64,000 nucleotides of DNA from Escherichia coli (GCF_022846255.1 NZ_AP025682.1), one strand, 5' to 3'; positions 32,710 through 34,386 are shown, counted from the first letter of the stretch. A program made the numbers and translations. The notes: generated by a model from the sequence alone, not told the origin.

Positions 32710-33576
32710 ATGGCCGAAAAAAAACAGTGGCATGAAACGCTACACGACCAGTTTGGGCAGTACTTTGCGGTAGATAACGTTTTGTATCATGAAAAGACCG
32801 ATCACCAGGATCTGATCATTTTTGAGAACGCCGCATTTGGTCGCGTAATGGCGCTGGATGGTGTAGTACAAACCACCGAGCGTGACGAGTTTATCTATCA
32901 TGAGATGATGACCCATGTTCCGCTACTGGCCCACGGTCACGCGAAACATGTGCTGATTATCGGCGGCGGCGACGGCGCAATGCTGCGTGAAGTGACCCGA
33001 CACAAAAATGTTGAGTCAATCACGATGGTGGAAATCGATGCGGGTGTCGTGTCGTTCTGCCGTCAGTATCTACCCAACCATAACGCCGGTAGTTACGACG
33101 ATCCGCGCTTTAAACTGGTGATCGACGATGGCGTCAATTTCGTTAATCAAACCAGCCAGACTTTTGATGTCATTATCTCCGACTGCACCGATCCTATCGG
33201 TCCCGGCGAAAGTCTGTTCACCTCAGCATTTTATGAAGGTTGCAAACGTTGCCTGAATCCTGGCGGTATCTTCGTCGCACAAAACGGCGTCTGCTTTTTA
33301 CAGCAGGAAGAAGCCATCGACAGCCATCGCAAACTCAGCCATTACTTCAGCGATGTTGGCTTTTATCAGGCGGCGATCCCGACCTATTACGGCGGCATCA
33401 TGACCTTTGCATGGGCGACAGATAACGACGCCTTACGCCATCTCTCAACCGAAATTATTCAGGCGCGTTTTCTCGCTTCTGGCCTGAAATGCCGTTATTA
33501 CAATCCGGCAGTCCATACGGCAGCTTTTGCCTTACCCCAGTATCTGCAAGACGCACTGGCTTCACAGCCGTCCTAA
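32710..33576 (+). CDS. speE: Spermidine synthase (polyamine aminopropyltransferase)
   Basis: ORF 32710..33576 (288 aa) [40 protein letters not shown]; motif [13 protein letters not shown]. Confidence 0.93.
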
Positions 33577-33591
33577 GGAGAAGATAAGAAA

Positions 33592-34386
33592 TTGAAAAAA
33601 CTGAAACTGCATGGCTTTAATAACCTGACCAAAAGTCTGAGTTTTTGTATTTACGACATCTGCTACGCCAAAACAGCCGAAGAACGCGACGGTTATATTG
33701 CTTATATCGATGAACTCTATAATGCCAACCGTCTGACCGAAATCCTGTCAGAAACCTGTTCTATTATCGGGGCCAATATTCTTAACATCGCCCGCCAGGA
33801 TTACGAACCACAAGGTGCCAGCGTCACTATTCTGGTGAGTGAAGAACCGGTCGACCCAAAACTTATCGACAAAACAGAACACCCCGGCCCACTGCCAGAA
33901 ACGGTCGTTGCCCATCTCGATAAAAGTCATATTTGCGTACATACCTACCCGGAAAGTCATCCTGAAGGCGGTTTATGTACCTTCCGCGCCGATATTGAAG
34001 TCTCTACCTGCGGCGTGATTTCTCCGCTGAAGGCGCTGAATTACCTGATCCACCAGCTTGAGTCCGATATCGTAACCATTGATTATCGCGTGCGCGGTTT
34101 TACTCGCGACATTAACGGTATGAAGCACTTTATCGACCATGAGATTAATTCGATTCAGAACTTTATGTCTGACGATATGAAGGCGCTGTATGACATGGTG
34201 GATGTGAACGTCTATCAGGAAAATATCTTCCATACCAAGATGTTGCTTAAAGAGTTCGACCTTAAGCACTACATGTTCCACACCAAACCGGAAGATTTAA
34301 CCGACAGCGAGCGCCAGGAAATTACCGCTGCGCTGTGGAAAGAAATGCGCGAGATTTATTACGGGCGCAATATGCCCGCTGTTTAA
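33592..34386 (+). CDS. speD: S-adenosylmethionine decarboxylase proenzyme
   Basis: ORF 33592..34386 (264 aa, TTG start) (M)[25 protein letters not shown]; AAGGAG at 33575-33580 overlapping speE stop. Confidence 0.9.

Follow-up and report, generated by a model that had tools for sequence, protein, structure and literature searches.

The E. coli gene speD appears to begin with TTG at position 33592 of the 64,000-nucleotide stretch of DNA analyzed here (the window), which raises the question of whether this isolate has lost an ATG or whether TTG is where the gene normally starts. The original prediction, made from the raw sequence, left both readings standing: a genuine non-AUG start, or a strain-specific ATG-to-TTG change that would lower SpeD translation. 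Our analysis indicates that the TTG is very probably the authentic start of speD, the second gene of speED, and that it is reference annotated, anciently conserved, and not a mutation of this strain. The TTG start is already known, being the standard one in reference annotation; the reading of the raw sequence called the correct annotated start, and a strain-specific expression defect is no longer suggested. The gene is an unusually clean case of a non-AUG start that has been fixed over a long evolutionary distance, against a genome-wide tendency toward AUG.

We read the start region directly from the sequence (Table 1). The Shine-Dalgarno motif AAGGAG overlaps the last two bases of the speE stop codon, and exactly 11 nt (AAGATAAGAAA) separate the motif from TTG. 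The positions proposed at the outset for the speE stop, AAGGAG, and TTG, as well as the 11-nt gap, are exact to the base. The speE stop shares the frame of speD, a point that the original prediction did not make, and in this frame the codons preceding TTG are TAA GGA GAA GAT AAG AAA; the speD ORF is closed 18 nt 5' of TTG by this TAA, and no ATG, GTG, or TTG occurs in the speD frame between the two. This bears out the earlier observation that there is no in-frame ATG between the speE stop and the SpeD N-terminus. The next in-frame start candidates downstream are a GTG at codon 82 and an ATG at codon 177, both of them far past the conserved N-terminus. With the frame closed in this way, TTG is the sole canonical start codon (ATG, GTG, or TTG) able to yield full-length SpeD.

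Folding predictions indicate that the RNA near the start is unusually open, with a minimum free energy of -7.3 kcal/mol compared to -11.8 ± 2.6 kcal/mol for shuffled sequences, and both flanks of the start codon are A-rich (AAA before, AAA AAA after). The best duplex that E. coli speD forms with the 3' end of 16S rRNA is CUAAGGAGA, at -9.1 kcal/mol; the median in 80 other Enterobacterales is -11.7 kcal/mol. The A-run that follows the start codon (TTGAAAAAAC) was a candidate slippery site, which we rejected: it is just six A's long and does not follow the X XXY YYZ register.

Table 1. Features of the speED locus, in window coordinates
Feature	Positions	Strand	Basis or remark
speE (spermidine synthase) CDS	32710..33576	+	ATG start, 288 aa; annotated speE in IAI39 and K-12
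speE stop TAA, also closing the speD frame	33574..33576	+	In-frame codon reading
speD Shine-Dalgarno AAGGAG	33575..33580	+	Overlap with speE stop; duplex with 16S 3' end
A-rich 11-nt spacer AAGATAAGAAA	33581..33591	+	Positions -1 and -2 (AA) nearly invariant across Enterobacterales
speD initiation codon TTG	33592..33594	+	K-12 and IAI39 annotation; 80/80 Enterobacterales; INRI-seq peak
speD CDS, S-adenosylmethionine decarboxylase proenzyme	33592..34386	+	264 aa; TIGR03331, PF02675
speD codons Lys111-Ser112 (AAA AGT)	33922..33927	+	Residues 109-114 = LDKSHI, counted from TTG
Terminator-like hairpin, 11-bp stem, 8 G-C pairs	34391..34418	+	Directly after speD stop

We compared the start region with complete E. 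coli genomes, 5,425 of 5,426 of which contain the speD locus. The 63 bases from 33561 to 33623 are identical in 5,347 of these 5,425 genomes. The same 63-mer with ATG or GTG in place of TTG has no perfect match among complete E. coli genomes; this test passes over ATG variants that carry a second SNP nearby, so at most 78 genomes could have such a variant. In K-12 MG1655, speD (b0120) is annotated at 134788..135582 on the minus strand, and its start at 135582 is this TTG. The RefSeq annotation of IAI39 places the start at the same codon, and the 401 bases from 33400 to 33800 are 100% identical to both IAI39 and CE10. The window belongs to another E. coli lineage than K-12. The two nevertheless have identical nucleotides from the end of speE through speD codon 11, including AAGGAG, the spacer, and TTG, as well as the same annotated start, the same length of 264 aa, and a TIGR03331 match; the few differences are synonymous and lie deeper in speD, with none at the start site. 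Since the reference genomes K-12 MG1655 and IAI39 carry TTG here, it is the normal start. A mutation lowering SpeD output in this isolate was reasonable to propose a priori, TTG being merely one transversion from ATG, but we found no evidence for it, and the identity of the K-12 sequence and annotation, the 5,347 identical E. coli genomes with no perfect ATG or GTG version, and the presence of TTG in 80 of 80 Enterobacterales species (see below) refute it, leaving a negligible chance. As a separate observation, the identity of the window to IAI39 holds near speED; elsewhere the two are not collinear.

The annotated start could also be wrong, with initiation taking place at another codon; candidates would be the CTG at codon 4 or codon 6 and, out of frame, the ATT at 33591. 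In-frame CTG codons are indeed present at 33601 and 33607, and CUG initiates at approximately 1 to 2% of AUG (bioRxiv 10.1101/063800). The protein family argues against such a start. SpeD matches the NCBIfam family TIGR03331 (SAM_DCase_Eco) with 491.5 bits (cutoff, 255.8) and PF02675 with 53.9 bits (cutoff, 25). Positions 1 to 259 of the TIGR03331 profile align to residues 3 to 261; because the profile begins at residue 3, the N-terminus initiated at TTG accommodates the family profile with a margin of two residues, and residues K3-L4-K5-L6 are conserved. A frame opened at the ATT is out of register with speD and would end after 9 codons, and in all species the Shine-Dalgarno is placed for TTG.

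The processing of the protein agrees with the same numbering. The speED sequence and the N-termini of the SpeD subunits were reportedly determined in 1987, by Tabor and Tabor and by Anton and Kutny. In the SpeD proenzyme, an internal serine gives rise to the pyruvoyl group. Lys111-Ser112, which we take to be the published self-cleavage site of the proenzyme (UniProt P0A7F6), falls at those residue numbers only with TTG as codon 1. A search by sequence found no solved structure matching SpeD, and there is no speD entry in the TRAINSPOTTER N-terminomics supplement or in the Mori 2021 tables.

Published profiling data place initiation at the TTG itself. INRI-seq (PMC9825163) is a cell-free form of initiation profiling in which ribosomes are arrested by retapamulin on synthetic transcripts that contain a 30-nt 5' UTR and 51 codons. 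All five replicates gave a peak, of 35 to 61 CPM, at the speD start as annotated (135582, minus strand; PMC9825163 Table S2). The speE peak in the same data reached 105 to 147 CPM, and the synthetic speD transcript was approximately sevenfold less abundant than that of speE (50.7 versus 344.8 CPM). The speD peak lies 12 to 18 nt from TTG, and initiation at +9 or +15 would put the peak outside that interval; no alternative speD start is listed in INRI-seq Tables S2 to S4 or S6. Initiation anywhere other than TTG 33592 is accordingly very improbable. [quoted passage not shown] Because the INRI-seq speD transcript includes the Shine-Dalgarno and lacks the speE ORF, UUG works as an independent start. 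The reading of TTG as a genuine non-AUG start is upheld by four kinds of evidence: the annotation of reference genomes, the closure of the frame, conservation at depth, and published profiling of initiation sites.

Ribosome profiling of MG1655 in vivo (PMC10746267 Table S3) shows how strongly speD is translated relative to speE. The mean densities for speD and speE were 32 and 41 rpkm at pH 7.6, 94 and 95 rpkm at pH 5.8, and 10 and 28 rpkm at pH 4.4. At pH 7.6, 5.8, and 4.4, respectively, the translation efficiencies were 0.44, 0.68, and 0.26 for speD and 0.32, 0.44, and 0.38 for speE (PMC10746267). In two of the three conditions, then, SpeD translation does not fall below that of SpeE. The lowered SpeD translation that the original prediction envisaged is not evident relative to speE, given the similar ribosome densities of the two genes at pH 7.6 and 5.8.

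We used a scan with one genome per species to follow the start codon across the Enterobacterales, which yielded 80 species ranging from Escherichia (99% protein identity) to Photorhabdus (78%). The aligned speD start codon is TTG in all 80. The motif upstream of it, (T)AAGGrGGTGAnnnAAA, is conserved as well, and in most genera a near-perfect extended Shine-Dalgarno (GGAGGTGA) is paired with the weak TTG; a GGAGG or GGGGG core ends 9 nt before TTG in 51 of the 80 species. E. coli and E. albertii have a degenerate form of the motif, longer by 1 nt (AAGGAGaaGAtaagAAA). The combination of a weak start and a strong Shine-Dalgarno in most Enterobacterales speD genes follows the pattern described in PMC5622118, in which GUG and UUG starts go with stronger and more conserved Shine-Dalgarno sequences, while selection genome-wide generally favors AUG. 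In three Erwinia-like loci (L046, L051, and L118), an ATG lies 6 nt before TTG. We consider it unlikely to be the true start, because it is only 3 nt past the GGGGG core, while TTG retains the standard 9-nt spacing.

Substitutions were counted by parsimony on a neighbor-joining tree of the 80 Enterobacterales speD genes. The bases of TTG account for no changes, positions -1 and -2 for one each, and the Shine-Dalgarno positions for 4 to 12. For comparison, positions beyond -15 changed approximately 20 times, and 11 four-fold degenerate sites averaged 20.8 changes (minimum, 3). The speE start served as a control in the same genomes and is ATG in 75 and GTG in 4, so start-codon turnover does happen in this sample of species.

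The conservation extends beyond the Enterobacterales. The speD start is TTG in Permianibacter, Marinobacterium, and Neptunomonas and GTG in Gallaecimonas; in all four genera, an in-frame stop lies 15 to 36 nt upstream of the start, with no ATG in between. In Permianibacter, speE lies 166 nt upstream, and in the other three genera no speE is found upstream. Metagenomes scanned with a DNA pattern encoding HGFNNLTK, and so only for sequences that retain this motif, contributed 62 further distinct loci. In the pooled set of 124 distinct proteins, which is biased toward motif-keeping sequences and is dominated by Enterobacterales (by design, in its species part), the sole candidate start is TTG in 102, GTG in 4, and ATG in 5; of the remaining 13, which are ambiguous, 10 show TTG at the position where the starts align. 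The pooled tree requires no fewer than five switches of start codon. Exact-sequence look-up allowed some of these sequences to be named: TTG is found in Psychrosphaera, Methylothermaceae, and the Negativicutes genus Phascolarctobacterium, GTG in Rheinheimera, and ATG in Pseudoalteromonas. Homologues with 43% identity or less all begin with ATG. Overall, a weak speD start is kept in the Enterobacterales, in several other gammaproteobacterial orders, and in a Negativicutes genus, with speE adjacent or not.

From this comparative pattern, we infer that the weak start codon of speD has been kept by selection. The first base of TTG is unchanged on a tree where neutral sites changed approximately 21 times. 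Two of the three possible changes at this base, to ATG or GTG, preserve a start codon, so their complete absence points to selection rather than drift. The most likely purpose of the weak codon would be to cap or tune SpeD synthesis. A point against a start selected for weakness is that ribosome density on speD is roughly equal to that on speE, rather than lower. In reporters, UUG supports 10 to 100% of the output of AUG (bioRxiv 10.1101/063800), and changing the UUG of gshA to AUG raised basal synthesis 3.0-fold (PMC4405209). In the E. coli genes cya (UUG), gshA (UUG), pcnB (AUU), and infC (AUU), a weak start is accepted as limiting the amount of a dose-sensitive protein, and these non-AUG codons, like that of speD, are kept across species. 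The AUU of infC serves IF3 autoregulation, for which speD has no counterpart, and the dose sensitivity of speD is hypothetical.

One specific form of such tuning is that UUG and a distant Shine-Dalgarno make speD translation responsive to polyamines, with putrescine or spermidine gating the enzyme that supplies the aminopropyl donor. Members of the polyamine modulon of Igarashi and Kashiwagi are stimulated by polyamines via a UUG or GUG start (cya, spoT, cra, uvrY, frr, and gshA) or via a Shine-Dalgarno located approximately 10 nt rather than approximately 6 nt from the start (soxR and emrR) (PMC4405209). The E. coli speD initiation region combines both features, with UUG and a Shine-Dalgarno 11 nt away, and its weak start is conserved far beyond the expectation under drift. 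However, membership in the modulon is defined by a measured translational response, and the likeness of speD to it lies in sequence features. The gene is absent from the member list in PMC4405209, and our literature search for the speD TTG start or for speD translational control found nothing specific. Stimulation by the pathway's own product would, moreover, amount to positive feedback, an odd arrangement for a biosynthetic enzyme, and the distant Shine-Dalgarno is specific to Escherichia, most other Enterobacterales having a strong one at normal spacing. On balance, we regard a polyamine response of this kind as improbable.

A broader proposal is that selection maintains the weak start (UUG, sometimes GUG) as a control point shared across deep lineages of E. 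coli-type speD, perhaps one that makes SpeD synthesis sensitive to polyamines or to IF3 and initiation capacity. It is a speculative idea that we hold with considerable doubt. If it were true, the start codon would act as a translational gate on the supply of decarboxylated SAM. The eukaryotic S-adenosylmethionine decarboxylase, AMD1, is under translational control by a polyamine-sensing upstream ORF. Control of speD would resemble that of AMD1 in logic, not in mechanism: the two enzymes have the same activity, and expression would in both cases be limited at translation initiation (for speD, hypothetically), but AMD1 is a sequence-unrelated class 2 protein, and it relies on stalling by a uORF peptide rather than on a weak start codon. 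Should the weak start prove regulatory, bacterial polyamine homeostasis would gain a layer of control at translation.

The mechanism that we favor for initiation at TTG 33592 is led by the Shine-Dalgarno. The 30S subunit would pair with AAGGAG, overlapping the speE UAA, and thereby place fMet-tRNA on UUG, within a region that is predicted to be unusually unstructured and is A-rich. In vivo, the speD start is probably also supplied by ribosomes that have finished speE, whose stop lies 15 nt upstream, as suggested by the similar ribosome density on the two genes. The speD UUG can recruit ribosomes without speE, and coupling is not obligatory in vitro; coupling to speE may contribute to speD translation in vivo.

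In a stronger version of coupling, most translation of speD would come from ribosomes that finish speE and start again 15 nt farther on; TTG would then be tolerated and conserved because the strength of the start codon would barely matter. Several features of the locus are in line with this: the Shine-Dalgarno overlaps the speE stop, with a gap of just 15 nt to TTG; no internal promoter-like site is present; speE and speD adjoin, in the same order, in K-12, in IAI39, and in 80 of 80 Enterobacterales, with the speE TAA directly against the speD TTG in Enterobacter; and the ribosome densities of the two genes are nearly equal at pH 7.6 and 5.8. On the other side, the densities diverge at pH 4.4 (10 versus 28 rpkm), and INRI-seq detected initiation at TTG on a transcript without speE translation. 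The distance from the speE stop to TTG ranges from -37 to +77 nt among the 80 Enterobacterales (modes 28, 14, 6, 20, 15, and 0), while TTG is constant, indicating that what is fixed is the start codon with its Shine-Dalgarno and not the junction. TTG or GTG also starts speD where no speE lies upstream, in Marinobacterium, Neptunomonas, and Gallaecimonas. Finally, if codon strength were irrelevant, drift should have produced ATG or GTG, but no changes are seen, compared to approximately 21 at neutral sites. Taken together, these observations make it rather unlikely that re-initiation from speE is the main route to SpeD, and Shine-Dalgarno-led initiation at the UUG, probably supplemented by ribosomes from speE, is the reading we prefer.

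Our promoter scan of positions 32400 to 34600 found no promoter-like site, and neither a promoter-like nor a strong terminator-like site was found between speE and speD. The hairpin directly after the speD stop (Table 1) is likely the end of the speED transcript. The lack of a promoter-like site and the presence of this hairpin are consistent with co-transcription of speE and speD. No Rfam family matches the speE-speD junction at E-values up to 1; the sole Rfam match that we obtained is a sub-threshold, chance snoRNA hit at 32656-32753.

The original prediction also named five probable GTG starts elsewhere in the window: hrpB at 7055 (minus strand), htrE at 13744 (plus), panC at 20389 (plus), acnB at 37558 (minus), and secM at 61029 (minus). 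We placed the annotated starts of IAI39 onto the window gene by gene with BLAST. All five GTG codons match the RefSeq annotation of IAI39 and the annotation of K-12 MG1655, and the ORF lengths of these genes are as expected. In total, 53 annotated genes were mapped onto the window, of which 46 start with ATG, 5 with GTG, 1 with TTG, and 1 with ATT. Usage of AUG, GUG, and UUG in E. coli is reported to be roughly 83, 14, and 3% (bioRxiv 10.1101/063800), and one TTG among 53 genes fits these values. The ATT start belongs to pcnB (10034, plus strand), which is annotated with this codon and was absent from the earlier list of non-AUG starts; in E. coli, AUU has been confirmed as the start of two genes, pcnB and infC (bioRxiv 10.1101/063800).

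The E. coli-type speD (S-adenosylmethionine decarboxylase) gene starts with TTG or GTG in genomes far outside Enterobacterales, as seen in the retrieved homologous loci L085-L088 and L089-L168 (e.g., L086 1201, L088 1201, L114, L124, and L155). The lineages with such starts are Permianibacter, Marinobacterium, Neptunomonas, Psychrosphaera, Methylothermaceae, Rheinheimera, Gallaecimonas, and Phascolarctobacterium, the last of which is a genus of Negativicutes, and in some of these genomes speE (spermidine synthase) does not lie next to speD. Pseudoalteromonas speD starts with ATG, and so does every homologue of ≤43% identity. 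Within Enterobacterales, we found that GTG replaces ATG as the start codon of speE in 4 of 79 species (loci L016, L020, L023, and L039), which represents ordinary start-codon turnover adjoining the invariant TTG of speD.

The ribosome-binding site of speD is weaker in E. coli and E. albertii than in the loci L006-L082 (-9.1 compared to a median of -11.7 kcal/mol). This is a derived state in Escherichia, produced by a change from GGAGGTGA to GGAGAAGA and the addition of one base to the spacer, and the TTG is the same despite the altered site. Three Erwinia-like loci (L046, L051, and L118) carry GGGGGTGAATGAAATTG at the start of speD, which places a candidate in-frame ATG 6 nt (two codons) 5' of the conserved TTG and just 3 nt past the Shine-Dalgarno core; the TTG itself is kept alongside this ATG. 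In Erwinia psidii IBSBF 435 (L062), codon 74 of speD is changed from CAG to TAG, resulting in a premature stop after 73 codons, and this gene is either a pseudogene or the product of a sequencing error.

Features located in the window
Feature	Window position	Strand
pcnB start codon (ATT)	10034-10036	+
yad fimbrial cluster (yadN, yadV, htrE, yadM, yadL)	~12000-18000	
speD ribosome-binding site	33575-33591	

In the E. coli genome collection, 3 of 5,425 speED junction matches fall on plasmid-labelled records rather than chromosomes. In E. coli HT-948 (L209, NZ_CP122317.1), the sequence matching the speE-speD junction (locus 2501-2535) stops one base past the TTG, speD is missing, and adiY and adiC lie ~445 nt downstream of speE, which together indicate a rearrangement or deletion with its breakpoint right at the speD start.

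In published K-12 Ribo-seq data (PMC10746267 Table S3), ribosome densities on speD and speE are 94 and 95 rpkm at pH 5.8 compared to 10 and 28 rpkm at pH 4.4, a larger drop for speD than for speE. The two cistrons diverge in ribosome density in a condition-specific manner (pH 4.4).

The pcnB start is annotated as ATT in the window, IAI39, and K-12 MG1655, and besides this start just one other AUU start has been confirmed in E. coli (bioRxiv 10.1101/063800); pcnB was missing from the non-AUG starts listed in the original prediction.

Compared to IAI39, gene starts in the yad cluster of the window are only 77 to 89% identical, whereas the surroundings of speED are identical. The yad region of IAI39 contains an IS3 element and several pseudogenes, including htrE with an internal stop and a frameshifted yadM, whereas the htrE reading frame of the window is intact (862 aa). 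Given this low identity and the intact htrE, the window is not IAI39 itself, or its yad region is recombinant.
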